A stretch of 62,960 bases of DNA, counting the filler. It is 12 parts of 12 records of this genome, joined end to end, with 100 filler letters (N's around TTAATTAATTAA, not from the genome) between each part and the next. Parts side by side here need not be neighbours in the genome. Positions count along the whole stretch, not along the records: positions 23,916 to 37,663 come from SRR7504441_7771; 11 more parts are not named here. One strand, given 5' to 3'. Shown here one piece after another: positions 4,265-43,487 of the stretch (positions within the stretch are counted from its first letter, which is position 1; each line of letters starts with the position of its first letter). The notes beneath the pieces were generated by a model. That model searched no databases. It saw nothing but the letters and a program-made list of their open reading frames with translations, and was not told the DNA's origin. The translations under genes and the position numbers were made by a program.

Positions 4265-4364
4265 NNNNNNNNNNNNNNNNNNNNNNNNNNNNNNNNNNNN
4301 NNNNNNNNTTAATTAATTAANNNNNNNNNNNNNNNNNNNNNNNNNNNNNNNNNNNNNNNNNNNN
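4265..4364. other. Artificial contig spacer N44-TTAATTAATTAA-N44; identical spacers at 13136, 16597, 19979, 23816, 37664, 43626, 47274, 50881, 55276, 59118
   Basis: Identical 100-bp N-flanked linker with stop codons in all six frames, repeated 11 times; genes are truncated at these points. Confidence 0.99.
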
Positions 4365-13135: not shown

Positions 13136-13346
13136 NNNNNNNNNNNNNNNNNNNNNNNNNNNNNNNNNNNNNNNNNNNNTTAATTAATTAANNNNNNNNN
13201 NNNNNNNNNNNNNNNNNNNNNNNNNNNNNNNNNNNGTGTTTTGTAAGATGTGGTGACTATCCGCCTAAAATCTAATCTTTTTTTTTCCAACCTCTTTTAG
13301 AACGACACAACCAACTCGCCCGGCAGCCGAATCCTCCGACGGAGCG

Positions 13347-23915: not shown

Positions 23916-26400
23916 CGGATTTGGCTCGGAACAACAACGTGCCTTGTATGCCCGCCGTGATCGAGAACGCGTTCTTGGGCAAAGCTGTGACAACATAGGC
24001 GTGCTTATCTTGACAACACGGCTTCCGCAGCACCCGCTGTATCATAAACTTGACGACTGTTTTCTCTTTGCGCTGCTTGCCCTTTGGGCCTCGATATAGA
24101 GGATTTGGGACGTTGAGTGCAATCGGCTCGCAAAGCAGCGCAACGTCGCTCATCAGGATGAGGTGACAGCGTTCAGTGAGTCTGTCTCCGACGTTGCTGC
24201 TGTCCGCTGCTTCGGCCGCATCCGACCTTTTGACGCGACTCAGTGAGTACAAGTCGCCCTCTCGGCAGACCTGCCTGTTTTCACAGACGAAATACTCGGA
24301 CGGGTTGTAAAGCGTGTCATGAACTGCAAGGAGCTTCTTGAATTCGGCACACTTGCGATCCACAAAGCTGTTCATGCCCGTTACCACTTGCAGTGTCTCG
24401 TCGAGATCGGAATAGTTGATGTGAGCTTTCGGGGTGAGTTTCTTGAGACGCTTCAACAGACTCTCCATGTTGGTGGCACACTGCAGCACCCCGAATAGAT
24501 AAAAGTCGGCAGGGTTTTTGTTGGCTGGAGGCGGCTGCGACTGCTGCAATTCCCACACGAAATCCCTCATCTTCTTCCCCGAATCGGCCTTCATGCCCTT
24601 GTCCTTGACCAGTTTCATCATCTTGGTGATTCGATTCATGTATTTCACCAAGTGTTCCTGCGAGCCCTCGACAATTGCCCTGTAGAATTGACTCACTGCT
24701 AATAATCTGTCACGGCTGCTTTCTTGCAAATTGGCACAAATCTCCTCCTCAAAAGCAGGGATATGTTGGTCATGCACCTCTTTCAAGCCACAGACCGCTC
24801 GCGAGAACACACTAAACTCGTGATTGATCCAGCCGTGAGGGTCCTTATCGCCCCCCACCCCAGCTGCAAGCACACTCCGCTGTATCGGATCCAAGAAGTG
24901 CGCATTCAGAGACCCAAGGTCCCTACTAAATCGACACGCCACCTGCACCATCTCCTTCAGCACCGAATCGGCGGTGGCCATGTTCTTAATCCGTTTCTGC
25001 AGCCGACACCCGCCGAGCCCCTTAAGCTGGTACGCCAACCTGAACCTCTGCACCCTCCGCTTGATCAGCTTGATCGCTGCCAGCCGCCTCTGGCCGAGCA
25101 GCGCGTGCATCTCGTCGGCTTGCTCCTCGTGCTCGGCTATTTTAGTCTCGGCTTCGCCCAGCTGCTGCTTGATCTCTGACAGGGCGCTTAGGAACTGAAC
25201 GGACCATTCGTGCCTCTCCTTCTGTCGGTGCTCTAACAACAGCACAACAAGGTCCGAAGGCGAGCTAGCTTTGTTGACCTTGCTCTCAAGCTTGGCCGCT
25301 TCGGCACGCCCAGCCGGCTGCCGGAACCAGTTGTCAATCTGCTTTTCAAGTTTGGCCATCTGGCCTCCCGTGAGCCCCTCGACTGGCCGATCCCCGAGAG
25401 GTGTCCGACTCAGCCTGTAGAGGACTAACTCCTTCTGCCTGGCCATCTCAAACGCCATGTCCAAGGCCAGCTTCCGCTCTAGATCCTTGGTCGCACTCAA
25501 CTGCTCTCTCAGCTGGGATTCAAGCCGCTCTGACCGCAGCTCCGCATCAGCACGGGCCCGCTGCTCGGCCTCAAGCTGCACCTCTAACGTCTTGTTCAGC
25601 TCGCCAAGCTCCTCAACCAGCCCACTCTCCCCAGCCGGCGCTGGAGCCTCGCCGTCCACGCCCCCCAGCTGGTCCTCCAGCACGGCGTTCTGAATAAGCG
25701 CCTCGCTCATTGCCTTGAGGCCGCTCAGCTGGTCAAATACTCCTTGAACGATCCCCACCTGCTCCGCCCGCTCGCTCTTTGCCCACTCCCGCCGAAGCAC
25801 ATCCCGCTCCAGCCGCTCCGCCGACGGCGACCGCGCCAGGTGGGTCGGCCTGCCCGCGGCCCGCAGTTTCAGCCTCTCGAGATCCGCCCGGCACCGGCTC
25901 AGCTCCGCTTCCTGGCTCTCTATCACCACTTGGTCGGCCGCGATCCGTTGGAGCGCCAGCTCGAGCGCGGCCGCGGCCTGCTGCAGCCGGTCGGGCGCCG
26001 ACTCGGGCGCCCGCATGTGCGCCGAGAGCGCTGCGGGCGAGGTGGCTCGCTCGAACCGGCGGGATTGGACCGCCCGGTGCCGCCACTGCCAGCCGGGCTC
26101 TTGAGCCTCCTCCTCGGGCTCCTCCTCGGGCTCATCCTCGACCGCCCGACTGGGCTGTGGACTCGGCCTGTCGGGCCTTGGGCTCGGCTGTGCGCGCGCC
26201 CGCTCCGGGGCCTTGCGACTGCTCGCAGCCGGCACTGGGCACGGCCGGGCCGGTCGCTGCCACGGCGGCTCGCGCACCAGCCCACTCGCCCGCTCGCTCG
26301 GGCGGGTGCGTCCGGCCCGTCGACCCGCGCCGCCGGCCTGCCCACCGGCGCGCTGCCCAGACGACCGCTGGACACTGCCCCCGGCCCCGCAGCTCTGCAT
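23916..26400 (-). CDS. Coiled-coil + RhoGEF (DH-PH) protein (3' partial, start uncertain)
   Basis: SVLKEMV..FSRDL..FLDPI, LLKRLKKLTPKAH..DL..L (DH); RQVCREGDL, RCHLILMSDVALLC, NAFSI (PH). Confidence 0.75.
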
Positions 26401-26473
26401 TGGCCAACGACTTCTGTGGGCCGCATCGACCGGGTGAGGGTACACACAGCCTGGGGGTGGTCGCTGGCCGAGG

Positions 26474-27012
26474 ATGAATCGGCCGGAGCGGCAAGAGCTG
26501 CTCACCCTGCCCGAGGGCACCCGCAAGTGGCCGCGAGCCGCGAGCCGCGGGCTGAGCGGCGGGCAGGGTGCTTGTGAACAAGGACACAAAGCTGCCGAAC
26601 GCCGCCACCATCACCATCGAGCGAGAGGACCACACCGTCGGGAATCTGGCCCGGATGTGCCGCCCCGCGCGCGCCCGGCGGCGCTGACCGATCGGGCAGG
26701 CAACTGCTTCGGGACAACCAGGTCCTGTTCGCGGGCTACAAAGTGCCCCACCCTTTAGAGTACAAGGTGCCCCCCGACGGGTCCAGGCCTGGAGCCGGTG
26801 GGGGCGAAGGTGATGCTCCGAGTGCAGACGACTGCTGAAGTCACACCAACCCAGTGCACCAGTAAGGCGCTGATGGATTTGGTATCCGAGCTCACCTGGT
26901 TCGAGAACAAGTTCAGCGCAGAGGTGGGCCAGCGGGTGGGAGGCGCTCAGCGGGGGGCGGACAGGTGCAGCGGAAGCGCAATCCGGGGGCCATGGAGTAC
27001 ATCATGAAGTAG
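26474..27012 (+). CDS. RPB11: DNA-directed RNA polymerase II subunit RPB11 (5 exons)
   Basis: [55 protein letters not shown]; four GT-AG introns of about 40 nt. Confidence 0.96.
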
Positions 27013-27387
27013 TCGACTCAAGCGCTGGTTCGCGCAAGGCGTTTAGCATAGCTCAATTGAACTACGAACTCGAGTCCGCACGCAATACGTACAATTGAAC
27101 TGATTTGAACATTGTTACGTACACATTGATACTACATTGATACCTAGGCTTTGGGTTGACTTTATACTCGTACAAATTTCAAGTCACATCTTAAGAATCC
27201 GGTTTTCGTACAGTTTTCATTATTAATATATATCAAATGTCGGTTCCCTAATATCTGGACATTAGTGCAAGGCTGTGGGGGGTCATTTGGCGGCCGCTAC
27301 GCCAGATATTGATAAGATATTGAGCTGATTTGCAACCCCACCGGCCTGTGACTTGAGGGGCGAAACCATAGCCATGCATAAACAAAG

Positions 27388-30300
27388 CTACATCCCGTCG
27401 CGGAAAAATCTAGCCTCATAAAAGCCATTGAAGTCGAGACGAGCAGTCAGGTTAGAGAGGTGTGGGTCCCCTTCTGATGACGAAAACCTCTTCAGCGCCT
27501 GAACGCACGCATGTTAATCCGATTGGTTGCGGTCGGTCTAAAGACCTGAATAAGGTAATGCAGTGTCTGGTCGAAGGACTTCTCCAGCTTGGTGATGGTT
27601 CCAACAAATCCCTTGTCCTCCATCACTTTCTTTGCGCGCTGGGTGCCACTCCTGCAGTGCCCAGACAGCTCAGTTATAAGCGATTCGTGATGTGAGACCG
27701 TTGGTTCTCTTCACGGCTAGCAAAACGCTCGTATAATGGCACTTTGTATACTTCGGCGCCCTCGACATGGTCAGGGCAGAGATCCTGCACCGGGTGAGTA
27801 ACTTGCTTCTTAGCACAGAACAACCTTGTGCACCAGGCTGATGTGCTTGGCGAATGCGTTGCAAATGGAGGTGAGCTTAGTTAGAATCTTAAGCAGCCGT
27901 GGATTCCGGAGCATGCACTCTTTGAAGCATGCATCGAGGAACTCGTTATGGTGCTGCAGAGAGAGGAAAGTGATCAGCTGGCACGGGAGCCAATCTACAC
28001 ACCTGGAGTACGTCGTCGATCGAGGATGCTTGCTGGATCTTCTTCTCCATCTGGTGCCATCTCGGCTCCAGCACCTGGCAGGCCTCTACTCAACTAGACG
28101 GCTTAGCTTGAGATCACCTCGTTCATCATATAGTGCTGCACGTTCTGTAGGAAGTGAAGCATACGCTGCTGCAATGCGTATGACTGCCACACGCCTTGTA
28201 AAGCCGGGACCGCATTCGAAACCGGCGACTGACCTGTACGAAGGCTTTGCGCAGATGGAAGTGCTTCATTTCCTGGTGATTGAGCCAGGTCTTGCACAAT
28301 TGCCGCTCGACGTTCTGAAAAGCAGCCAAGTGTCAGCGCATGCACTGGACAGATGCCTGACCTTGCAATGGAACAGATGCCTGAAGATGAGTTGATACTT
28401 GACAAGCACCTTCTTTGACACAACCAATGACAGCGGCCATTGCACCTGGCAGCGCGAATGAGGCCAGCTTGCGTGAGCACTGCCACCTTGTATGCCAGCG
28501 TGAACAGATCCATCCCAGTGAGACTGCTGTAAGCCGAGGCTGTGACTGGCGATGCCTCCGGCGAGGCGGCTGGAGCCGATTCAGCTTTGCCTTTGCCGTC
28601 GACCCCGACAATCCCCATGATGTGCTTGATGAGTGTGTAAGGCTCAAGATCACACATCAAGTCGTCTTTGTACGGATCCTGCATTGCACCGAATCAGCTC
28701 ATTGGCCCGATGCGGCGGATGACGTCGTTTGCAGAAGATGTGCGCAGCGCGAGCTCCAGCAACGAAGCAAGCTTATTCGGAGAAATGTCCTGAACATATT
28801 TGGCCAGTTCTTCCTCTGCAGTGTCCATGAAGTGGTTAATGAAGTCTCCCTGAAGCCAGCCAGTTGGTCAGCTCGCAGTCAGCTGGTACACCAGCACCTG
28901 GTCAATCAGGAAGTAGTGCTTGATTGATCGAAGCCGAGCCATCAGCTGCTGATCGTCCTTTATCATGTCCAACAGAATCTGGCTCGAGTACGTGTACGCA
29001 GTCTCGATCTTCTCCATATAGTCCCTGACCAGAGCAAATTTGCGTCAAAAGGAGGTCACTAGAGCCGGTGACCGATCCTGAAGCGTGTAGGAAATGGCCG
29101 CCTTGTGCGGATTCTTCACTGTGATCTGGCATTCTCTGATCACATTCAAGTACTTGCCGGCCCTCAGGATCTTGTCAGCCACCTGCATGAGCAGCTCACC
29201 ACTGTGCTGGCGGTGTCCTGGTCACCTTTGCTAGGAATGGCGGCTTCTGTGACTCACGGATTGTGTACCGCTGGGACCAGTAGTTATCGTATACGTTCTC
29301 GCTCAGAATTTCCTTGCGCATGTCGACACGCTCCTCGATCATGAATTCGCCTGCAGCCCATTACACGGGGCATGCAGGCCAGAATGACCGTACGGATCGC
29401 GTATCTCGCCATCGTAGATCCAGTGCTCGAGCATCTCAAAGTATGGGACCGAGGCTTGCTGCATCAGGTGGAAGAACAGCTCCTGGGCCTGCCGGTCTCC
29501 GCCATATTTGATCCCCCTCTGCTGGATCAAATTGAGCAGCGCTGCACCGACCGGCTCAGCGGATCGAGCTCAGCGGTGACTCACCGCCGCCGGTTGCGAA
29601 GGTCCGAGTAGCCTCAGTGGTGAGTGCTTGCAAGATCTGCATTACTTGCGCTGAAGGCTGGATGTAGAACCAGAGGCGCTGCAGTGTAAGGTTCCCGGCT
29701 CTATGCTGCAGGCAGGACATCAGCTCGAGCCGAGCGGTGCCGCGGCAGCACCTGGGTCTCCAGCTGGGCAATCAGAGTGAGGTACTCCCTTGTGAGCCAG
29801 CGGACAGACGCAGAGAATGCATGATTGACCAGACCACACCTGTCAGCGAGGTCAGCGCTCAGCTTGCCAGACTTCACACACCTGAAGAGCGAGTTGCTGT
29901 CCACAAACCGGGTGACGTCCACGTAATAGACTCCCAGCGGAGAGATCCGGTCCGCTAAGTTGGCCAGAGACGGGTCCAACGAGGGGTCGACTGCAACAGT
30001 GAGCTTGGCTGCAGGAGCGTCCTCGCTCTTTGGGAGAGAGTCGTCCATGGTGAACTGGAGGAACCGGCCGTCCAGCCCCATCATTATGTGCAGCAGGTCC
30101 TCCACCAGCAGCATCTCCTGCACGTCCACCTATCGAGCAATCACAACCCCGCGCCAGTACTATCCCCACCGGGTACTCGGACAGCTTGGTCTGCTCGTTG
30201 GCTCGCTTCACTGAGAAAGGCGATTCCACGATCGCCTTGGAGGCTTGCGTGGTGGGTGACAGCGCGCTGAGGTACTGGCATCCGCTGAGGAAAGGTCGGG

Positions 30301-31110
30301 ATTTGATCCACTCCGGAGGGGTCGGGATTGTTCCACCGCTCTGGTTTGATCCCCCGATCCCTTCGAGCACAGAAACGTCCTTACCGGCCGCGTCACGCGC
30401 CCCCGAATGCCCGGTCGCCACCGCGTCCAGCTTCATCTTAGAGACCGGCGAGAGCGCCACCTCGGTGCTGTTTGAAGCTGCCGTGTGCGCGCCCACGCGT
30501 GGCGTCGCCTTGAGTGAGGCCCTCTCCACCAGCGAAGCCCGCTTCTCGCCCGTGGGCTTGTCCAGATCGGCGGCGCGAGGGGTCTTGGCCGGGGTCCGCC
30601 GAATGCTCGGAGGGTCTTGTCGGGTGGAAAGCGACTGGCCCAACATCACCACCAGCGCCTGCGCCCGCAGCTCAGCACCCATTCCGGCAGCCGAGCCGAC
30701 CTTGTCGTCCAGGATCTTGGCCAGCAGCGTGACGAACCGGTCCAGGTCGGCCGGGTCAAAGTTGGGCGAGCTCCGCAGCTCATCGTACCTGCGGAGCCGC
30801 TCAGGTCGCGCCTCCGCCCGCCGACCCACTTGGCCATGGTCTGCGGGGGGTTGGCGCTGCGGTCAAAGAGCTTGCGCTTGACGGCGCTGCCGGGCGGGCT
30901 GCTGGCACCGGGGCCCGGGCGATGGCCACCTGATGGCCACGTCGGAGACGGCGAAGGAGGGCGCGATCCCCCTGGCAAGCTGGCGCGCGTGCTCGTCGGG
31001 CTTGCTCTCGACCTGGCCGGCGCCGCCTGGGACCAGACGGCTGGTCGGGCGGGCACCTCGACGATCGAGAGCAGCCGCTTCATCAGCCGATGCAGCCGCT
31101 CGCCTTCCAT
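27388..31110 (-). CDS. TUBGCP2: Gamma-tubulin complex component 2
   Basis: [116 protein letters not shown]. Confidence 0.93.
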
Positions 31111-31187
31111 CTTGCTCTGGCAAGGGCTGGCGTCCTCGGGGAGCTTCAAATCAACAACGGCACTCAGTGAGTCAGGCTTGCCAGTGC

Positions 31188-32636
31188 ATGCTGTTCGTCT
31201 TGATGAGAGCCACCGGCGCGCGACGGGCTGCCTGGTTGATCCTCCCGGCGCTGCTCGGGTCGGCGCTGGCGCAGATCGAGCAGTGCGATGGCTCCAACTA
31301 CACCCGCTGCCGCCAGGGGCTGTGGCGGCAGGTGTTCAACACCACCACCGGCCGGCTGCCGTCCCGCTCGGCCCCGGATTTCGTCGAGGACTGGTCCAAC
31401 TGGACGATGGAGGGCCTGCCGGGGCCCGGCCGGGGCACGGGGGTGGGGAACGTGCAGTGGCGCGTCGGGCTGCAGAAGCTGGTCTGGACCATCGGACGGG
31501 CCGGGGGCGGGATGAGGGCCGGGATGCTCCGGCTCAACTCGACGGTCTGGTACTCGCGCAACACCACGGGCGATGCCCCCGCAAACTCGCCCCCGGCAGG
31601 GTACGGGCTGCCGGCCGCCGATGCGACCCACTGTCCGGACGGCTCGCGGCCCGGGTTCGAGAGCTGGCGCGGCCAGTCCGATACGCTAGTCATCCACCAC
31701 AACGGGCACTCCGGCTGTGCAGGCGCGGCCCGGGTGACCGATTGCTCAGACTGTACGCCCAACTACGATACGACACAGGACTGGCTCAACCAGCTCGGGT
31801 ACGATGTGATGGAGATCGCCATGCCGCTGCACGGCTGCAACCGAATCGCTGGCAACACATCGTGCGCTGAGCACTGTGTCAGCGACCCGTCCCGGGGTTT
31901 CGACTGCTCTCAGTGCGTAGATCTGAGCGCCACCGGCTCGCTGGTTGGGTCGCACCAGTGGTTTCGCCAGTTTGAGGATCAGGGCGATGAGGTTATGCGT
32001 TATTTCCTCGAGCCGGTGGTTCTAGCGGTCAATTACGCCACGAGTGTGCTCAAATACCGCCGGATTGTTATGGTAGGGCTCTCGGGCGGTGGCTGGACCA
32101 CAACAATTGCGGCAGCCATCGACCCTCGCATCCAGCTCTCCATGCCGATCGCTGGATCAGTGCCCAAGTTCCGGTCGTTGCTGTATCCAAAGTGGATACC
32201 TGACTTGCCTGAAGGAGGCCACGCACGCAGCGCCAGCGGGGGGTACGTGGAGGGCGGGGGAGGTGACTTTGAGCAGAACGCGTCGAGGCCGTTTTACACG
32301 GCATGTGGATGGGCCTGCTTGTACACACTCGCTGCGATTGGGGAGGGCTCCGAGCCACGCCACTCGCTGCAGATGCTGCATGAGCACGACAGCTGCTGCT
32401 TCGCCACGGCTGGGCTGCACGCCAACATCACCGACTACAATCGGTTTGTCCAACGACAATTGATTGAGCACGGCCAACCGGGCTGGTTCCAGACAAGCGC
32501 CAATTATGGCAACTGGCACGAAGTCAATTACCGAGACAAGTCTGTGCTCGCGGCCATGATCGAACGACACCGGCGGCCTGGTGGCATCAAGCGTGCACAC
32601 TATGAAGATATACCATTCAACGTCTTACCTGGCTGA
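31188..32636 (+). CDS. Secreted alpha/beta-hydrolase-fold protein, apparently intronless
   Basis: Signal peptide; HHNGH, FLEPV, IVMVGLSGGGWTT (GxSxG nucleophile elbow), DPRI..PIAGS, DSCCF. Confidence 0.7.
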   Translation: MLFVLMRATGARRAAWLILPALLGSALAQIEQCDGSNYTRCRQGLWRQVFNTTTGRLPSRSAPDFVEDWSNWTMEGLPGPGRGTGVGNVQWRVGLQKLVWTIGRAGGGMRAGMLRLNSTVWYSRNTTGDAPANSPPAGYGLPAADATHCPDGSRPGFESWRGQSDTLVIHHNGHSGCAGAARVTDCSDCTPNYDTTQDWLNQLGYDVMEIAMPLHGCNRIAGNTSCAEHCVSDPSRGFDCSQCVDLSATGSLVGSHQWFRQFEDQGDEVMRYFLEPVVLAVNYATSVLKYRRIVMVGLSGGGWTTTIAAAIDPRIQLSMPIAGSVPKFRSLLYPKWIPDLPEGGHARSASGGYVEGGGGDFEQNASRPFYTACGWACLYTLAAIGEGSEPRHSLQMLHEHDSCCFATAGLHANITDYNRFVQRQLIEHGQPGWFQTSANYGNWHEVNYRDKSVLAAMIERHRRPGGIKRAHYEDIPFNVLPG

Positions 32637-32822
32637 AAACAACCTTATTACATGTAACGTTTACTATAAACATTACAGTCATGATTACACCAGGTTTGTC
32701 CGGACTTCCTTACAATAATTATGCTATAGATCTCATAAATGCTGATTCAATGCACGAATGCTCATATCTAGCTGCACGTTTATGTATTTCAAATCGAATG
32801 TCTATCTTAAACAACTATACAT

Positions 32823-34623
32823 TCAGGCTATTTGGAACCCGGCACCGTCAGTGTGGTCGAATACCTCTCTAAGCATTGATGCCATTGTCTCTTCGGAGTC
32901 ATACTCTGGTAGGTCGAGCTGGTAGAAGCAAGTATGCGCTACAGGCCGGCGCTGTTCGCCTTGAACCGATGGCAGAGCGGTGATAGTAAGCCGTCCGGGT
33001 CCTCCCGCTCTATTTTGGTTCGGGGTCGGGAGTCCGCCGTCTGGGATGTGGTCATACTCTGTGACATAAATCAAGAATTTCCTGAGCATCTCATTAGACA
33101 TGCCCCGCAGGACAGACTCGAGCATCTGGCGGACACGGATACTGCGTGGATCTTGCGGGTTCTGGAACTTCAACAGCGCAATCACGCTCGGGGCATCTAT
33201 GTGCTCTTGGCCGTGAACTGGATTGTAGACTTGCCTGAAGGAGGCGCAGCCACGCAGTCCAGGATTCGGGTGGAACGGGTGGAAACGATGGGCCAGTCCG
33301 TGGTAAAAACGATGGGCCAGTCGGTGCGAAACTCCAGCCTGGCAGTGCATGTGCTTGAATCAACTTCCAAGCTTCGGCGGCTCAGGGAAACAGTCGAACA
33401 AGGGATTGAGCTGCACGGATTGATATCAGATGGTACTGTGCCTGCAGGGTTGAAGTTCCCTGACGAGGACGAAAGAAGGTTGCGAGAGGCAAACGACAAG
33501 CTGAGGGCAATTGCTGCAAGCGATGATGATCTTTCTGAGAAGGGTGAGCTCGATCTTCGCGGCCGGCGGTGCGTGTCCTTGCCCTTCCGTACCGAATTGG
33601 TGTTGCAGGTTGGCACAGCTCAAAGCAATCCGTAAAGGATTTGTGGAGGCCCAGAGGGCACTCGGTCTACGCGAACACATGAAGATGCTGTCGTACGTGG
33701 TGTGCCTTTTAGTAAAGGCCTTCTCATGAGCTTGAGATGCAGGACTTCAAGCTGTTGGCTTGTGGCTTCGCAAGGACAGGCAAGAGCTCGGTCTAGGCTT
33801 AAACAATAAGCTCGTTCCGTACCCAGGTCCGACTTCTTCTGCATCTTCCACCATCCACATCTCCCGCGGACTAACCAGACGTCACCACCGCCTTCCATGC
33901 AGTACGCTGGAGCTCCGTCGCGTGCACTGCCGGTGAGCGCGTAAATTCCGTTGACAACATCGATTGCATCGCTTGTCAACGCGTTGACTGTTGCCCCGCT
34001 GACCTGCACTCGGGTAGGCATCTTCAGCGCCCGCCCCCCCAAGTTGGCCCGTTCTGCCTGCAGCTCCCGCCGTTGCTCTCCTAGTGCCTGCAGCACCTCA
34101 TTGAACGTGCTGAGCACCTCAACGCGGATCCCAGCCTGCGGCTCAAACACGCCATCGGCAGTTGCCACCTCCCAGCGCGTTATCTCCCACAGGTCAGAGG
34201 CTGCAAGGTTCGCAGCCTTGCAGCAGCACCGCCCCAATTGAAACCCTGATTCCGGTTGGATTCTCCAGCGCCCGTCCGCAAGCGCCAGCACTACGCCCGG
34301 AACCCGGTCGTTATGATATGCGCACCGCCCCGTCAGTGTGTAGACGCCATTGATCTCTCCGGCGAAGGGGCCGGTCGCCCCGCTGATCCGCGCCCGGGCA
34401 GGCATCTCGAGCAGCAGGTCGCCTATGACGGACTGCATCTCGCGCACCAGCCGATGTCGCTGCTCGCCCGGCAAAGCTCGTATCTGTCGCGTTTGTGGAA
34501 TCAGGTCAATTATATAACTATGCATCCTCGATGTCTGCAATATCTCACTCGACGCGCTCACCTCCTCAGGCTCCTGTGAGCATCCCGTCTCTCTCTGTGC
34601 GCCGTTAAGTTCGACTCCTGCAT
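32823..34623 (-). CDS. HECT-domain E3 ligase-like gene with an internally inverted segment (pseudogene, scrambled allele or assembly artefact)
   Basis: C-lobe RKFLIYVT..P..GL..RPVAHTCFYQLDLPEYDSEE..GF on minus 32823-33209; N-terminal two-repeat region on minus 33764-34623; the linking part is encoded on the plus strand (next feature). Confidence 0.85.
33210..33766 (+). other. Inverted internal block of the HECT gene (exons 33213-33568, 33609-33699, 33743-33766; GT-AG introns 33569-33608, 33700-33742)
   Basis: Plus-strand spliced reading AVNWIVDLPEGG..RLAQLKAIRKGFVEAQRALGLREHMKMLSYVDFKLLACG joins in frame to minus-strand ..CPCEA upstream and QEHID.. downstream; ends are GCC (33210-12) and GGC (33764-66). 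Confidence 0.88.
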
Positions 34624-35003
34624 GGGGTGTGTTTGTCTACCGGTAGAATTTATTTTTGATTAAGTAGGGGTCCCTAGTCTAATATAATTTAATCAAGGTA
34701 CGATCAGAGTAAGGTACTATCAGAAGCGACGGAGACGACAAACCGACGACAGGCCTACGCAAGAACCCGCGCTTGTTCTTCTTCTTCGTCCACTTGGACT
34801 TGGTAAACTGCCCACCAAACCGGGACCTCATGACTTCAACAAACCTACTGTATACCCAACACGCAATGATAACGGAACTTGTCCACAACCAGGAACCACT
34901 TGACTCGCCTCAAGGAGACAGGCACACCAAGCACATGAGGGCGACATTAGATTAATAGTAAATGCGAATGGTATACATTCGTACGTAGAGGTGCACATGC
35001 TAT

Positions 35004-36927
35004 TCACGATGACTCAAACAAGGAGCGATAGGCACGCTTATCCTTTGATGCTCGCTCCCGCGCTGCTCTCCTAGTCTTGGCTAACCTATTTCTGATAGAA
35101 GCGTCACTCGGGGCAAGTTCCAATGCCCGCCTTAAGTCGGCAATCGCCTGCTCATACTGTCGCGTCTCGCTCCTAGCGCAGCCCCTCCTGAACAGCGCTT
35201 TGGGCTGGTCTGGCTCATCGGCTAGCACAGCGGTGCACAGCGCGACGGCCCGATCGAACAGCTCTAGCTTCAGGCAGCACGCAGCCAGGTTCAGATTGCA
35301 AGAGACCAGAAATTGCTGGTGCCACTTGGCGGTCGCCGCGGCCTGAGTGACCGTGTCGGGCTCCTCTGTCAAAGGCACGCTCATGGCCTGATACAGTCGC
35401 GCATGGCTACCTTTTAACGCCTGGCCTGCGTAGCACACGGCCTTATCATACTTATCAACTGCCAGCCTGAACTGGCAGCCCGCATAGAGCTGGTTCCCCC
35501 GCTCCTTGATGGCTTGCGCGGCCGCAATTGCCCGGTCGCTCCCCCCAAACGGCTCGTGCAGGTCCTCTAAGTAATCCGGCCACAAGTCACAGCCGTCTGG
35601 CCCAGTCGCCCTGCCGCCCCTCGCTGCCCGGTCAAGATGGGCGCACCTTAGAGCCCGAACATTTGCGATAAAACTCTCCACACACGCTACGTGGTCGCCG
35701 CACGCGCCCTCCACGACCGACAGCTTGTTCTCCTGCCCTTTGTTCGGCGCTAACAGGAGGACCGGCACCTCCAGCACCCGGAGCTGGTCCTTCCTGCACA
35801 CTGTCGGGAGCCCTGCAGTCGGCGCCCACACTAGCACTCTATCCTCGAGCCCAAACGAGGCCAGCAAAGGCAGCCGCGGGTGCGCAGCCGCGCCATTAGC
35901 GATCTGGGAGTCGGCCCGCAGCAGGTGCACCAGCTTGCCGCTTCTTCTCTCCCAAATCTGCCACGGCCTCTCAGCCCGCACACACAGCACGTACCCAGAG
36001 GTGCCCGCTGTCGCTGCCACTGACAACGTACTCATCTTGAGGTCCCCAAAACGTCACAGGCTTGCAGAACGTCTCGTGATTCAGGTGCCCTCCGTACTGC
36101 CTCACCACGCAGCCGCTGTCCATCCCGAAACTGTATATCTGATCGCCCTGGTACGATACTAGCAACTCACGCCCGCAGCACGAGAAGCAGCACCCGCTGA
36201 CAGACAAAGCCGGGTACATTGCAAGTGCCAGCGGTTCCTCCGCGACCGCTGCCAGTGGCTCTGGGACCAGACGCATCAGCGCTCCATGCGAGGCTCCACT
36301 TTGACCACCTTGTGCACCCCACTCCGCCCCGGGCGGCTTCCTGACATCAAACAGATACACCGCCGGCCCGACACCGCCCACCGCCAGCTCCCGCAGGTTG
36401 GGCCGGACCGCGACGCTCTTGACCGGCCGCTCGCGCTGCAGGAAAACCGCCCCCGGCTCGGGCTCACGCAGATCCACAAGCCGGACCTGCCCGTCATTCT
36501 GCGCAGTGACCACGATCGGCCGGTCCGGGTCGAGAAGCTCGAACGTGTGAATCAGCTGCTCGCTACGCACCGCCACCCGCGTCGCCCCGCCGTCGAGCGC
36601 CGTCACCCTGAGCGTGCCGTCCCCGGCGCAGCTGACCGCCTGGTGCTCGTGGCTGCCCTGCAGGAACTTGGCATCAAAGATGTTGTGGCGGTGCCCCGTG
36701 TCAGCCTGAGCGGCCAGCCGGTACTCCTCCCCCCAGAGCCGGAGCACGCAGTCGTCCCCGGCGGTGAGCAGCCGGCCGGACTCGGCCCAGCGGCAGGTGT
36801 TGATGCAGCCTCGGTGCCGGATACGCGTCCCCGGCTCCGGCCGCAGCCGCTGGACCAACGCCGGGTGCAGACCCAGCCCGGCCCGCCCGCCCAGCTCCCT
36901 GTGCGCGGCCCATGACTGGAGTGCCAT
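35004..36927 (-). CDS. WD40-repeat (DCAF8/WDTC1-like) protein with C-terminal TPR domain
   Basis: HRGCINT..W..GRLLTAGDD, TGHRHNIFDAKF, ELLVSYQGDQIY.F, YGGHLNHETFCK..F.G..EYVVSGSDSGH.WIW; TPR KERGNQLY, LNLAACCLKL, KALFRRG. Confidence 0.85.
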
Positions 36928-36974
36928 GCCCCAGACGCGTCCCTGTGACAGGTGCCCAGCGCGCCAACTGACAC

Positions 36975-37663
36975 ATGCCGTCCTCCCGTCGGAAGCGCAG
37001 GGGGAGCCACACCGAGGTGATGGTCAAGCCGGACGCGGCGATCGCCGTCGAGAAGCTAAGCACCACCCCGGATGCCGACCCGCGGGCCCCGCCCTCAAGG
37101 CAGATCGGCAGCCTCGAATGGGGCCGGCTCTACAACCCACCGGATCTACTCGCCCGCCCGAGCTGGGTGGTGCGACACCCGGTGTCGGTGCTGGCCGCCC
37201 GCGAGGCGGAGCTGGCGGCCGAGCAGCAGGCGCTCGAGGCGGAGCTGTCCCTGGCTCAGCACGAGGCCGCCATGCAGCAGCGGGGCTCCTTCGGGGGCCT
37301 GAGGCGGCATGCAATCGCCGAGTCGACGCGCTACCCACCAAGCGTCCCGCGGGCGACTGAGTCGGTGTGGCCTTTGGCCGGGCCGGCGCTGATGGTCGGG
37401 GACAGGAGGAAAGGATCGCGAGTCTGCTCCGTAGGGCGAGCCAGTTGCCCTCGGTGGGTGGTTCGGGGCCAGGGCGGAGCCGAGCGGCTGGACAGGCGGT
37501 GCAACTGTACCAAATCCAGTCCGAGGAGAGCTTCGCGCTCAGCCATGCCCAGTCAACAGCCTGGACGGGGCAGACGGCCGCTGAGCAGTTCCTGGAGGTA
37601 ACCGCCTCGTAGTTTGGAGGCTGATCGGGCCGCTGCAGCTTGTAACTAACAACGATCTGTTCG
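36975..37663 (+). CDS. Hypothetical protein with short coiled coil (3' partial)
   Basis: ATG 47 bp from the divergent WD40 gene; frames 36975-37364 and about 37405-37597 join by a GT-AG intron; another donor near 37598. Confidence 0.5.
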
Positions 37664-37850: not shown

Positions 37851-39891
37851 CCTACTATATAGCGGCTGACCGGTTTGACGGGAGCAGCTGGTGCAGCGCG
37901 TTGTGTCCGACTGTGAGCAGCCGGGACGGGTCAACGGCCTTGATTGCCTCAATCCTCCAGCCAAGGTACTCTCCCCACATCTGATCCATCCCAGTAAACG
38001 CCTCGGCCGCCCGGATCGGCATCGACGACACGTCCGGCGGGATCGGTTTACACGCACTGAACGTGGTGGACCAGCCCCCGCACTGCCACCGGACGTATTC
38101 GCCTGCAGCCGAGCTGAGCCCGCAGCCAGTAGGGCAGGCGGACTCCAGTTCTTGGCGGCGGGGTGCGCGTCCCAGAGGGTCTGGTTGGGCCCGATGCTGA
38201 TCGCCCCCGGGAAGTCATACTGGTCGTCCGGCTCGTTGCATAAGTCAAACCCAACCACCTGCCACGCCCGTCACGGCACAGCGCAGTACTTAGATAGTAT
38301 ATACTACCCAGCTCTCGTTCTTGAGCAGCGCAGCGTCGTGTGCGGCGGCGGCGATCACAGCCTGCTTGGAGTCAGTGGCCTATATACTGTATACAGTACT
38401 ATATACAGTACTATATACACAGTAGTACTAGTACTAGTATAGTAGGGCCTGCTTGGAGTCGGTGGCCGGCACCCGGGCGCCCTTGTAGCACTCGAGCGTC
38501 ACCAGCAGCCTAAACCTCGACCTCAGCCTCGCTAGATTGATAGGGAGCCTCGACCTGAGCCCGGAAGCCTGGTGGAGCGCTCGGATCATCCGCAGCACGT
38601 CCGGCTGGGCCCAGGTGGCCGGCAGGATCCCATACACCCGCACAGTGTTGAGCCCGTAAGACACAGCTGCACGGCCGATCATCAGCGCCTGGCACCCACG
38701 GCCGGATGGTGCCTGTGCCCAGGTCGGACGCCAGGATGCTGCCAGCCAGCGCTCAGTGGACAGAATCTGCTGAGCTAGACCACAGGGCTAGTAGTAGAGT
38801 GTGGCACCCAGGGGCTGAGACCTGGCTGAGACACGTCCGTTGGGCTAGTACATAGTAGCATATACAGTACTATATACAGTACTATGCACAGTAGTACTAT
38901 ATACAGTATAGTAGGGGCCGACCTGGCTGAGACACTTCCGTTGAACGCTCCCCGGAAATAGTTGGCACCCAGCATGAAATACCGCTCGCCTGCACCGCGG
39001 CTCGAGCACCAGCTCCCGCCGTACTATACTAATGCACATACATACTTGTAGTATACTATTCGAGTACCGGTGCTGTAGACTAAGTGCCCGTCGGCCACTC
39101 GGACTGGCCCGCCCGGCTTGCTGCTCCACGCCCCGGCCGCACTGGCCCGGCTCGTCTGCACCGGACGCCCATTCTCCCCTGCCGCGGCCGATCACCACGT
39201 GCTTTACTAACTAATCGTACCAGCAAAGTGGCTGCTGAGTAGACTCAAGATCGGGCTACTCATGTAGAACTCGGAGCCGGCCACCCCACTCAGCAGCCAC
39301 CGGCCGTGCCCGAACACCGCCCCGGCCCTGAACCGTCCGTTAGATGCCGTTGGCGTCCGTTGGTGACCTGTACTGGCTCACGGCCCACCCTACCGACCGG
39401 TTGTAGCTATCCACCGCCTCCGCCCAGGGGACCAGCGCCGCGTCCCCGGTGACCCACCCGACCGCGCTCAGCCCCGTCACTGGTGTCCGCAGCTCGAACC
39501 CGGGGCCAGGCGCGCCCGGGCTGGATCGCACCCGAGCCGTCCCCGCGAGGTGGTACGGCTCGTATGGAGAAAGGACGTTAATCGGGAGCTCGGCGGCGGT
39601 GGTGTTGATCCGCGGGGGGCGGCCGCCGAGCAGACAGAGCGTGCCGCCCCGCCGGGCGAAGGCCAGATAGTTTGGGACCGCGGCGGGGGTGAGGGCGGGG
39701 GCGTGGGCCAGGAGCAGCCCAGAGAGGTCGTGGAGGCCAGACAGGTCGGCGGGCAGGATCACCGCGCCCAGCCGGGCGGCCAGGGCGCGGGCGAAGCTGA
39801 TGTTTGGACCCGGCAGCACGCCGATCGTCGGCTGGACGGCGGACGCCCAGGCCGACAGCCAAACGGCGAGCAGCGCTGTGGACCGGTGCAT
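37764..39891 (-). CDS. Secreted clan GH-A (GH5/GH2-like) glycoside hydrolase (3' partial)
   Basis: Signal MHRSTALLAVWLSAWASA; spliced GHLVYSTGERYFMLGANYF, DLGTAVSYGLNTVRVYG, SWVVGFDLCNEP (acid/base NEP), TVGYN. Confidence 0.75.
38360..38467. repeat. 21-bp direct repeat (38360-38380, 38447-38467; 1 mismatch) flanking a TA-rich filler; forms an 87-nt intron
   Basis: gcctgcttggagtc(a/g)gtggcc twice around tatatactgtatacagtact...tagtatagtagg. Confidence 0.9.
38819..38943. repeat. 24-bp direct repeat (38819-38842, 38920-38943; 1 mismatch) flanking a related TA-rich filler at an exon/intron junction
   Basis: gacctggctgagacac(g/t)tccgttg twice around ggctagtacatagtagcatatacagtact...tatagtaggggcc. 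Confidence 0.9.
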
Positions 39892-41799: not shown

Positions 41800-42337
41800 T
41801 CAGATTTCTTCGACGTGGCTTGGCAAGCTTCCGGGCCTGGGCCTGCCATAGAGCTCTTCATGGCTCAGCTTGCCGTCGCCGTCCGCGTCGTGGATGTCAA
41901 ATCGCTGCTCCGTCTTGAGCTTCCCGTGCTGGTGATAAAACTCTCGCACGTCGATCATCAAGTCCCCGTTGCTATCCATCGCATCAAACGCTTCAGTCGA
42001 GCTCCCCTGGCGCATAGACGTGATCAGGCTGGCTGAGCTGTTGCTTGTACAGCCTGGCGTACTCACTGAGACTCACCGCCTGGTCCCCGTTCAAGTCGAT
42101 CAGCCCAAACAAGTCCGCCAGCCCGTGCTCGACCATCTCGTGACGGTCGAGCTGGCCGTTGGCGTTCGAGTCTAGCACTACGAACTCGCGCCGCACCGCC
42201 GGGTCGGGCTGCCGCTCCGGGTGAGGGTCCTGCCGGAGAGCCACCAACTGGTCTAGCGAGCCGGACGGGAACTCCGGCCACTCGCTCAGCCCCGCCGCCC
42301 ACCCGGCCAGCGCCAACACCAGCCCCCCGCACCGCAT
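41800..42337 (-). CDS. Secreted/ER-luminal four-EF-hand protein
   Basis: Signal peptide; DSNANGQLDRHE, DLNGDQAVSLSE, DSNGDLMIDVRE, DADGDGKLSHEE; C-terminal VEEI. Confidence 0.85.
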
Positions 42338-42414
42338 GCTGATGACCACGCGATGAGATCACCACATGGGGGGCCTCTCTCAAAGTCCGTTGCCTCAATA
42401 ACGGAATTATCACG

Positions 42415-43487
42415 ATGTGGCGGCCGGGGCCGCGGGAGGTGCTGCTGGTCTCCTCGGCCGAGGAGCCGGATCTCATCCCGGACGACGTGCACCTGCTGGC
42501 CGCCCTGGCCCGCCGCGGGGTCCGCCCGGTGATCCGGCTCTGGGACGACCCGGCCGTCGACTGGCCGGCGGTTCGGGTGCTGCTGCTCCGGTCGCTCTGG
42601 TCATACTCGCGGCCGGGCCGGTTCGGGGAGTTCGTTAGGTTTCTGGACCGGCTGCAGGCCGAGCCGCGCGAGGACCTGGCCAACATCAGGCCTCTGCTAA
42701 TCATATGCTAGTATATGTAGCACTGGGCGGGAGGCTGGTGTATATTGGGCGATGCCAGCACTGAGCCGCCGGCAGGTGGCACGCGCACAAACGGTACCTG
42801 CTCGACCTGGCCGCGGCCGGGGTCCCCACAGTGCCCACCCTGCTCGCCCGCGCCGCCCCCGTCATCCCGCCGGCCGACCCGCGATGGGATCCGTCCTGGA
42901 CCGTCCAGCCGGGCGGCCGCTGGGAGACTGTCCGCGTGGCGGCCGAGCGGCGGGGCTGGGACGTCAGGGGGGACGGGCTGGTGATCAAGCCAGCGATCGG
43001 GTCTGAGGGCGATGGGGTGCGGAGGGTGCGGTTCGGTCGGGCCAAGCGGGCGAGGCTGGACGTGCCGCTGGATGAGGATGTGCTGGTGCAGCCCTTCTTG
43101 CCACTGGTGAGGCAGCTGGGCGAGCGATGCCTGCTGTACGTCAGAGGCAAGTTCACGCACGCCATCCTCAAAGACCCGATTGAGCTGGCCGGCACCCCAG
43201 GCCCTGAGACCGCCGTGTTCCCCAACAAGGCTAAGGCGACTACCCCGACTGCTGAGCAGCTAGCGGTGGCCGCGGCCGCGCTTGGCGCGATGCCGGGCGG
43301 TCTGCCGTTGGTGGCGCGGATTGACCTGCTCCCGCGGGTGGGGCCGGGCCGGGTGGACTGGCTGCTGAGCGAGGTGGAGGTCTTTGGCCCCGAATTGTTC
43401 TCCAGAGTCGACTCGGCGGCTGCTGAGGCTGTCGCTCACGAGATCGACCGGCTGTTGGTCTCGTCAGAGCCGGACGACGGCTCTTAG
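42415..43487 (+). CDS. ATP-grasp ligase, RimK/DcsG-like
   Basis: WDDPAVDW..LLRSLW.Y, W..HKRYLLDL..GVPTVPT, VIKPAIG, VLVQPFL..GE..L..G.FTHA..K, ARIDL, LSEVE..PELF; one GC-AG intron 42690-42775. Confidence 0.85.

Follow-up and report, generated by a model that had tools for sequence, protein, structure and literature searches.

The stretch of DNA analysed here (the window) is 62,960 bases long and consists of 12 separate contigs of 3.3 to 13.7 kb joined by spacers, across which linkage is not real. At positions 32823–34623, on the longest of these contigs (23916–37663, 13.7 kb), lies a gene resembling HECT ubiquitin ligases. Its N-terminal part (33767–34525) and its HECT C-lobe (32823–33209) are on the minus strand, and the ~0.55 kb between them codes on the plus strand. 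An earlier note on this DNA (the original prediction) had set the limits of this reversed block at 33210–33766 and had put forward a microhomology-mediated inversion, a reversible switch or ciliate-like unscrambling, or an amplification or assembly chimera. The parts of the gene as assembled are as follows, the block being given both within these limits and within those supported by the RNA described below.

33767–34525, minus strand: 5' coding part, with 253 codons counted from the first Met and two degenerate repeats of ~100 amino acids (ISGATG..INGVY..W.I/V..)
33210–33766, plus strand: reverse-oriented block within the originally predicted limits, 557 bp; flipping it restores one frame
33217–33759, plus strand: reverse-oriented block within the RNA-supported limits, 543 bp
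33210–33568, plus strand: block exon 1, which holds the closing part of repeat 2 (NWIVDLPEGG..IRVERV), a tandem duplication of 8 codons and a linker faintly like the HECT N-lobe
33569–33608, plus strand: intron 1, 40 nucleotides (nt), GT..AG
33609–33699, plus strand: block exon 2 (..LAQLKAIRKGFVEAQRALGLREHMKMLSYV), coding for the helix of the HECT N-lobe that comes before the LLxCG motif
33700–33742, plus strand: intron 2, 43 nt, GT..AG
33743–33766, plus strand: block exon 3, 24 nt (DFKLLACG), the last 7 nt of which are flank under the RNA-supported breakpoints
32823–33209, minus strand: HECT C-lobe, QEHID...AHTCFYQLDLPEY...FQIA and a TGA stop, with the catalytic-cysteine motif AHTCFYQLDLPEY
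33210–33216, no strand assigned: left breakpoint zone, GCCGTGA, with the break at 33209/33210 (original prediction) or 33216/33217 (RNA)
33760–33766, no strand assigned: right breakpoint zone, TTGTGGC, with the break at 33766/33767 (original prediction) or 33759/33760 (RNA)

On the minus strand, the frame that opens with the Met at 34525 runs to ..LDRALACPCEA at 33767, where the right breakpoint severs repeat 2, and then turns to nonsense just as the original prediction had described, with 48 unrelated codons followed by a stop at 33620–33622 (301 amino acids in all). The plus strand from 33210 reads AVNWIVDLPEGG..IRVERV.., in a frame (AVNWIVDLPEGGAATQSRIRVERV..) that stays open until 33568. 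This first exon contains, at 33278–33325, an in-frame 24-nt tandem duplication whose copies are 88% identical and which gives ..ETMGQSVVKTMGQSV... Both introns shift the frame, after which the plus-strand reading continues as ..LAQLKAIRKGF..MLSYV and DFKLLACG up to 33766. The minus strand then resumes at 33209 with QEHID, in agreement with the earlier reading. The segments adjoin each other without a spacer or an extra base, and the right breakpoint zone is complementary to the left one at 4 of 7 positions.

When the block is flipped and the two introns are removed, a single stop-free frame is obtained, which is 539 amino acids long from the first Met and 576 codons long from stop to stop. All four splice sites are intact. 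Flips of 33210–33766 and of 33217–33759 are both in frame, with no base lost. The loss-free flip to one open frame that had been predicted is thus recovered once the introns are removed; the predicted product of ~562 amino acids is not.

Codon usage provides a measure of which strand codes. We trained a codon-usage table on 3277 codons from seven Pfam-supported open reading frames (ORFs) elsewhere in the window and scored each piece of the gene in all six frames, with the following log-odds.

Block exon 1 (33210–33568), plus strand: +23.5; the other five frames −11 to −37
Block exon 2, plus strand: +10.4; the other five frames all negative
N-terminal flank, minus strand: +44.9; the other five frames all negative
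C-lobe flank, minus strand: +14.6; of the other five frames, one at +0.3 and four negative

Similarity across the two breakpoints was compared between the assembled and the flipped forms. At the right breakpoint, the plus-strand continuation resembles the tail of repeat 1 (W.V...G....Q..IRVE) with a score matched in only 10 of 2000 shuffles, compared with 631 of 2000 for the continuation as assembled, so the alignment claimed in the original prediction holds. At the left breakpoint, we used two true HECT proteins from metagenome contigs, L001 and L002 (Pfam HECT at 2.8e-36 and 1.7e-93, respectively). Block exons 2 and 3 align to residues 186–222 of L001 and residues 271–302 of L002, directly N-terminal of their C-lobes. 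Their scores were matched in 6/2000 (L001) and 91/2000 (L002) shuffles, versus 983/2000 and 113/2000 for the 38 amino acids found upstream in the assembly. Smith–Waterman scores for the whole tail went the same way, with 203–204 flipped versus 146 assembled for L001 and 144–156 flipped versus 129 assembled for L002. P0001, an environmental protein of 1373 amino acids, has 12 such repeats, and a profile of them gave repeat 2 scores of 7.7, 8.3 and 6.8 bits for the assembled and the two flipped forms; this match stops short of the breakpoint and does not discriminate between them. By these similarities, both breakpoints sever recognisable units, which the flip completes.

The C-lobe places the gene with the HECT ligases. 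It matches Pfam HECT (PF00632) with an E value of 2.5e-17 and 63.9 bits (cut-off 23.9), over profile positions 193–303 of 306, and it matches 40 solved HECT chains, including E6AP, HUWE1, NEDD4 and Rsp5. In alignments with E6AP and HUWE1, AHTCFYQLDLPEY falls on their HTCF motif. In the assembled form, the Pfam match ends at the breakpoint (profile position 187), and it is continuous solely after the flip. The gene thus resembles known HECT E3 ligases such as E6AP/UBE3A, HUWE1, NEDD4 and Rsp5 in having its catalytic cysteine in HTCF..L.LP.Y, preceded by a Q..A...GF ... LLxxG helix. It differs from them in that its match to the Pfam HECT model is limited to roughly the last half, and two copies of an unnamed repeat stand in place of the first part of the N-lobe. 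A complete N-lobe (profile 1 to ~150, the E2-binding part) is absent, and the similarity of the flipped form to L002 begins near profile 106–155 in a local alignment. The HECT order that had been predicted after flipping therefore stands for the last N-lobe helices and the C-lobe, roughly profile 155–303 in the alignment to L002, and not for the whole domain. Block exon 1 has no Pfam HECT match at E up to 1. Block exon 2 alone, which at 30 amino acids is too short for such a search, gave no Pfam family at E up to 10 and one structure match, to an irrelevant Sel1 protein (E 0.57).

The N-terminal 290 amino acids match no Pfam family. They hold the two copies of an unnamed repeat of ~100–107 amino acids (I.ISGATG..A..INGVY ... 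W.IK ... W.V.DG), which is present in 12 copies in P0001 and has no Pfam family. P0001 is the sole relative found for this part, being the only one of 6936 longer candidates to pass; among 2130 candidates of near length, none passed. A protein atlas gave weak leads for the N-terminal part (0.87–0.88) in unnamed eukaryote clusters, for which the most frequent labels were Haptophyta or Foraminifera; these leads we did not use for taxonomy. No homologue of the block was found among 1.84 billion representative proteins, nor among 335 pattern matches in metagenome contigs. For the C-lobe, none of 208 longer candidates passed at E 1e-10, a threshold too strict for a 128-amino-acid query against that database. 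Three of 151 metagenome stretches passed (two at 37–38% identity and a third at 82% over only 17 residues), as did 0 of 93 candidates in prokaryote genome contigs and 4 of 10 in viral contigs (40–60% identity over short stretches). In these metagenome, prokaryote and viral contigs, there was no C-lobe homologue close enough to reveal the arrangement in an orthologue. Within the window, tblastn searches for paralogues of the three gene pieces returned self matches and chance-level matches only. The gene joins an unnamed repeat domain of ~100 amino acids to a shortened HECT domain.

The original prediction had suggested looking in RNA for a collinear transcript, and one was found, which is the strongest evidence of this analysis. 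The locus occurs in two RNA runs, both marine metatranscriptomes, at shares of 0.06 and 0.05 of sampled words. Three records of RNA contigs were aligned, and 33239–33593 and everything above 33736, for example, lie outside their cover. At the C-lobe, they align to 33008–33159 (100% identical), 32945–33155 and 33131–33216. The first two lie wholly within the C-lobe and are uninformative on the joints. The third (X2 record 3, 329 nt) spans one of them. Its letters 135–227 correspond to plus-strand positions 33608–33700 with 2 differences, and its letters 244–329 to minus-strand positions 33216–33131 with 3 differences, a pair listed as an opposite-strands joint; overall it has 5 differences in 179 aligned nt (~97% identity). 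Ahead of 33608, its letters end in GATCTTCGCGGCCGGC, which is 33552–33567, the close of block exon 1. Intron 1 has been spliced out of this molecule, since the end of block exon 1 directly precedes 33608. The 43-nt intron 2 has been spliced out as well and the 24-nt exon 3 joined directly to the C-lobe, because just 16 letters separate 33700 from 33216. Both GT-AG introns of the original prediction are therefore present in the sequence and removed in the RNA. The upstream exon of the record is too divergent to align at 88%. X2 record 3 is thus the orthologue of a related strain or a paralogue, not the allele in the window, and in a close relative it is the collinear order that is expressed.

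The same record bears on where the breaks lie. Its minus-strand piece extends to 33216, not to 33209 or 33212, and its 16 unaligned letters equal the length of 33744–33759. The breakpoints are probably at 33216/33217 and 33759/33760, 7 nt inside the originally predicted limits on each side. A flip of 33217–33759 gives ..LLAHGQEHID.. and ..CEATNWIV.., and a flip of 33210–33766 gives ..LLACG.. and ..CEAVNW... X2 record 3 cannot carry the latter version, because its C-lobe piece has only 3 differences, 2 of them at 33178–33179, and that version needs 3 within 7 nt. The limits 33210–33766 thus remain in frame and loss-free, and the RNA contig fits 33217–33759 better. As had been predicted, the only repeat exactly at the 33210/33766 breakpoints is the 3-bp GCC/GGC, and the ends have no inverted repeat beyond 3–4 nt. 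If the RNA-supported breakpoints are valid for the gene in the window, however, GCC/GGC lies in the flanks and the joints are essentially without homology. Of the microhomology-mediated inversion that had been proposed, the inversion relative to the working order stands and the microhomology is weakened.

Three independent lines, codon usage, similarity across the breakpoints and RNA, show that the plus-strand reading of the block is real coding sequence. These findings support the central claim: a HECT-type gene that is intact otherwise carries its middle part the wrong way round compared with the working order, and not a base has been gained or lost.

We then searched the window for signs of machinery or of recurrence. 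The best inverted pair near the breakpoints (I13) is 12 nt long at 83% identity and is offset by 10–15 nt from the right breakpoint, out of register, and no inverted repeat of at least 30 nt was found in the whole window. Pfam scans of 22 longer ORFs or gene pieces (14 on the 13.7-kb contig and 8 elsewhere) detected no recombinase or transposase. In a codon-usage strand map of all 12 contigs (63 kb), this locus alone showed a minus/plus/minus coding flip without an AT-rich spacer, so that no other gene switching strand and back, as the original prediction had envisaged, was seen. The one other abrupt strand switch in the window (42346/42358) falls between two genes that lie head to head, each starting with Met.

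One direct repeat touches the block. It is 30 nt long at 83% identity (32190–32219 and 33216–33245), with an exact core of 18 nt at 32202 and 33228, and it connects the neighbouring plus-strand gene (..KWIPDLPEGG..) with the start of the block (..NWIVDLPEGG..), beginning right at the left breakpoint that the RNA supports. Among 60 simulated windows, 3 contained an exact 18-mer repeat. We found no way in which the 18-nt repeat could have led to the inversion, since recombination between its copies would not yield the observed arrangement.

How might this arrangement have come about? The reading that we prefer, with moderate confidence, is a real inversion that knocked out the gene, very recent or still polymorphic and not programmed. 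The locus is one ordinary protein-coding gene, with two N-terminal repeats, a linker, a shortened HECT domain and two tiny introns. Its working form is collinear, and its central 543–557 bp, comprising the two introns, the linker, the tail of repeat 2 and the helix that precedes the C-lobe, is reversed in this contig. The assembled gene would be a null allele, because the sole product that its sequence would allow is the 301-amino-acid protein, which is without the catalytic lobe. A single, unprogrammed two-break inversion, rejoined without loss, would be present in the sequenced DNA, and the allele would be a very recent knock-out, or one still polymorphic or heterozygous, that needed no dedicated machinery.

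Several observations argue for this reading. The event looks recent, because 539 codons are free of stops and the four splice sites are intact. It looks unprogrammed, because there is no in-register inverted repeat, no spacer and no recombinase family in the scanned ORFs, and only one of 12 contigs is affected. A graph assembler cannot reverse a segment that has no flanking inverted repeat unless reads carry both junction sequences. We prefer a real inversion to an artefact because the joints are exactly reciprocal and such an assembler would have needed reads for both junctions. The locus resembles two-break micro-inversions of the end-joining type, in which a segment is reversed in place with reciprocal joints and little or no homology, leaving the gene in three pieces, and for which machinery is not needed. 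Rejoining without loss or gain at both joints is, however, cleaner than in many end-joined inversions, and the locus differs from these in that no base was lost or added at either joint.

Other observations weigh against an inversion in the organism itself. No DNA run with the locus was found, and hence no DNA read over either junction; the matching runs are all RNA. The assembly is fragmentary, with 12 contigs of 3.3–13.7 kb, and the complete lack of decay is predicted by an artefact as well. The sole junction-spanning molecule is collinear and comes from a relative or a paralogue, not from this strain, and the RNA contig that is 100% identical (33008–33159) ends 50 nt before the breakpoint.

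These points feed an alternative that we consider possible though unlikely, namely that the DNA of the organism is collinear and that the inversion was made during whole-genome amplification, library making or assembly. The 12 short contigs, the zero decay in all three gene pieces and the collinear order of the only junction-spanning RNA would all be expected of such an artefact. According to Lasken & Stockwell 2007 (PMC1855051), chimeras formed in amplification with phi29 polymerase are mostly inverted, join sites less than 10 kb apart and often involve 2–21 nt of complementarity. The locus fits this pattern of multiple displacement amplification as a short-range inverted join, possibly at a few complementary bases, and the 3-nt GCC/GGC at the originally predicted breakpoints fits too. 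The chimeras described there, however, have a single inverted joint (of the form A'C) with a deletion of the intervening sequence (PMC1855051), whereas two joints are seen here, reciprocal to the base and without loss. Two independent chimeras would not give such joints. There is also no flanking inverted repeat that would let a graph assembler cross the block either way, and no like strand flip was seen in the other 11 contigs.

A programmed or reversible event, in which the cell itself drives an on/off flip or the contig is a scrambled, germline-like copy to be put in order at the DNA level, as ciliates do, is in our view highly improbable. What speaks for it is that the inversion is exact and in frame with every piece intact, that a collinear transcript exists in nature and that a 3-nt inverted match is present at the originally predicted breakpoints. 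Under the RNA-supported breakpoints, though, this match lies away from the joints; the ends carry no longer inverted repeat, and no spacer resembling an internal eliminated sequence (IES) lies between the segments. The 22 ORFs or gene pieces scanned include no recombinase or transposase, a single contig of 12 is affected, and the RNA with the collinear order differs in sequence from this allele and does not derive from it. Bacterial invertible switches and shufflons, such as Hin/Gin/Fim and the R64 shufflon, carry inverted recombination sites on both sides of the segment and a recombinase gene close by. The locus shares with them the inversion of a short segment, exact and conservative, with an effect on expression, but neither inverted sites nor a recombinase was found at the locus.

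Ciliates offer the other precedent. In the scrambled loci of hypotrichs such as Oxytricha, a coding segment can lie reversed between the segments on either side, and expression is from the collinear order, which is the likeness to our locus (PMC9797194). As that source defines them, pointer repeats occur twice in the germline, at the junctions between macronuclear-destined segments (MDSs) and IESs, and are typically 2–20 bp long and longer at scrambled joints (PMC9797194). Repeats of this type are not found at the segment ends here, and the locus, unlike the Oxytricha genes described there, has no IES spacer or duplicated pointer and involves one segment at one locus (PMC9797194). The window also differs from Oxytricha in its standard stop codons and GC-rich DNA. 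The reversible switch or ciliate-like unscrambling of the original prediction is thus unsupported, for want of end repeats, a spacer, a recombinase or a second case in the 12 contigs.

That the assembled order is native and functional, as separate genes, as a minus-strand gene splicing across the block or by trans-splicing, is the least probable explanation, for although both strands have open frames and a CAG acceptor-like site can be read by hand at 33218–33220 on the minus strand, the only nearby GT (33745–33744, minus strand, also read by hand) would join to it out of frame, an intron of ~527 nt would be needed where the verified ones are 40 and 43 nt, no GT follows 33759 or 33766 on the plus strand as a trans-splice donor, repeat 2 would be left incomplete, and the C-lobe piece has no HECT similarity upstream, its Pfam match starting at profile 187 and the score of the upstream 38 amino acids being matched in 983 of 2000 shuffles.

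The surroundings of the gene give an idea of its host. The DNA of the window has standard stop codons, GC-rich coding and AT-rich intergenic sequence, and its genes include, by Pfam, kinesin, a dynein assembly factor, RhoGEF, gamma-tubulin complex components, WD40, TPR and AMP-binding proteins. By its stop codons, base composition and gene content, this DNA is eukaryotic, and the source is a marine flagellated eukaryote, marine because two marine metatranscriptome runs contain small parts of the locus. Genes in the window are closely packed. At 42334–42420, an EF-hand-like protein (minus strand) and a plus-strand ORF form a head-to-head pair whose starts are no more than a few dozen bases apart, and the genome is very compact. 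Next to the HECT gene, a long plus-strand ORF (30882–32636) carries a GLSGGG motif, which we take to resemble a serine-hydrolase elbow, and has no Pfam match at E up to 0.001. At 38378–38902, an AT-rich unit of 12 nt, TATACAGTACTA, is tandemly repeated in two patches ~470 nt apart. The spacers that join the contigs each consist of 44 N, TTAATTAATTAA and another 44 N, and are found at 4265–4364, 13136–13235 and nine further sites. No Rfam match was found across the window.

A gene broken by a small inversion and a contig with a local orientation error are both known and ordinary. For annotation, the consequence is that automated gene prediction will break the locus up into three: a truncated repeat protein, a spurious gene on the plus strand and a HECT C-lobe left as an orphan. 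An invertible element, present in one strain in both orientations and turning a ubiquitin ligase on and off by flipping ~0.55 kb of coding DNA that has no long inverted repeats, or else a germline-like scrambled copy, is something we think very doubtful; if true, it would be programmed gene rearrangement outside the ciliates. If reads showed the two orientations side by side in a single strain, or if many loci of this type came to light, programmed DNA inversion in a protist that is not a ciliate would be indicated.

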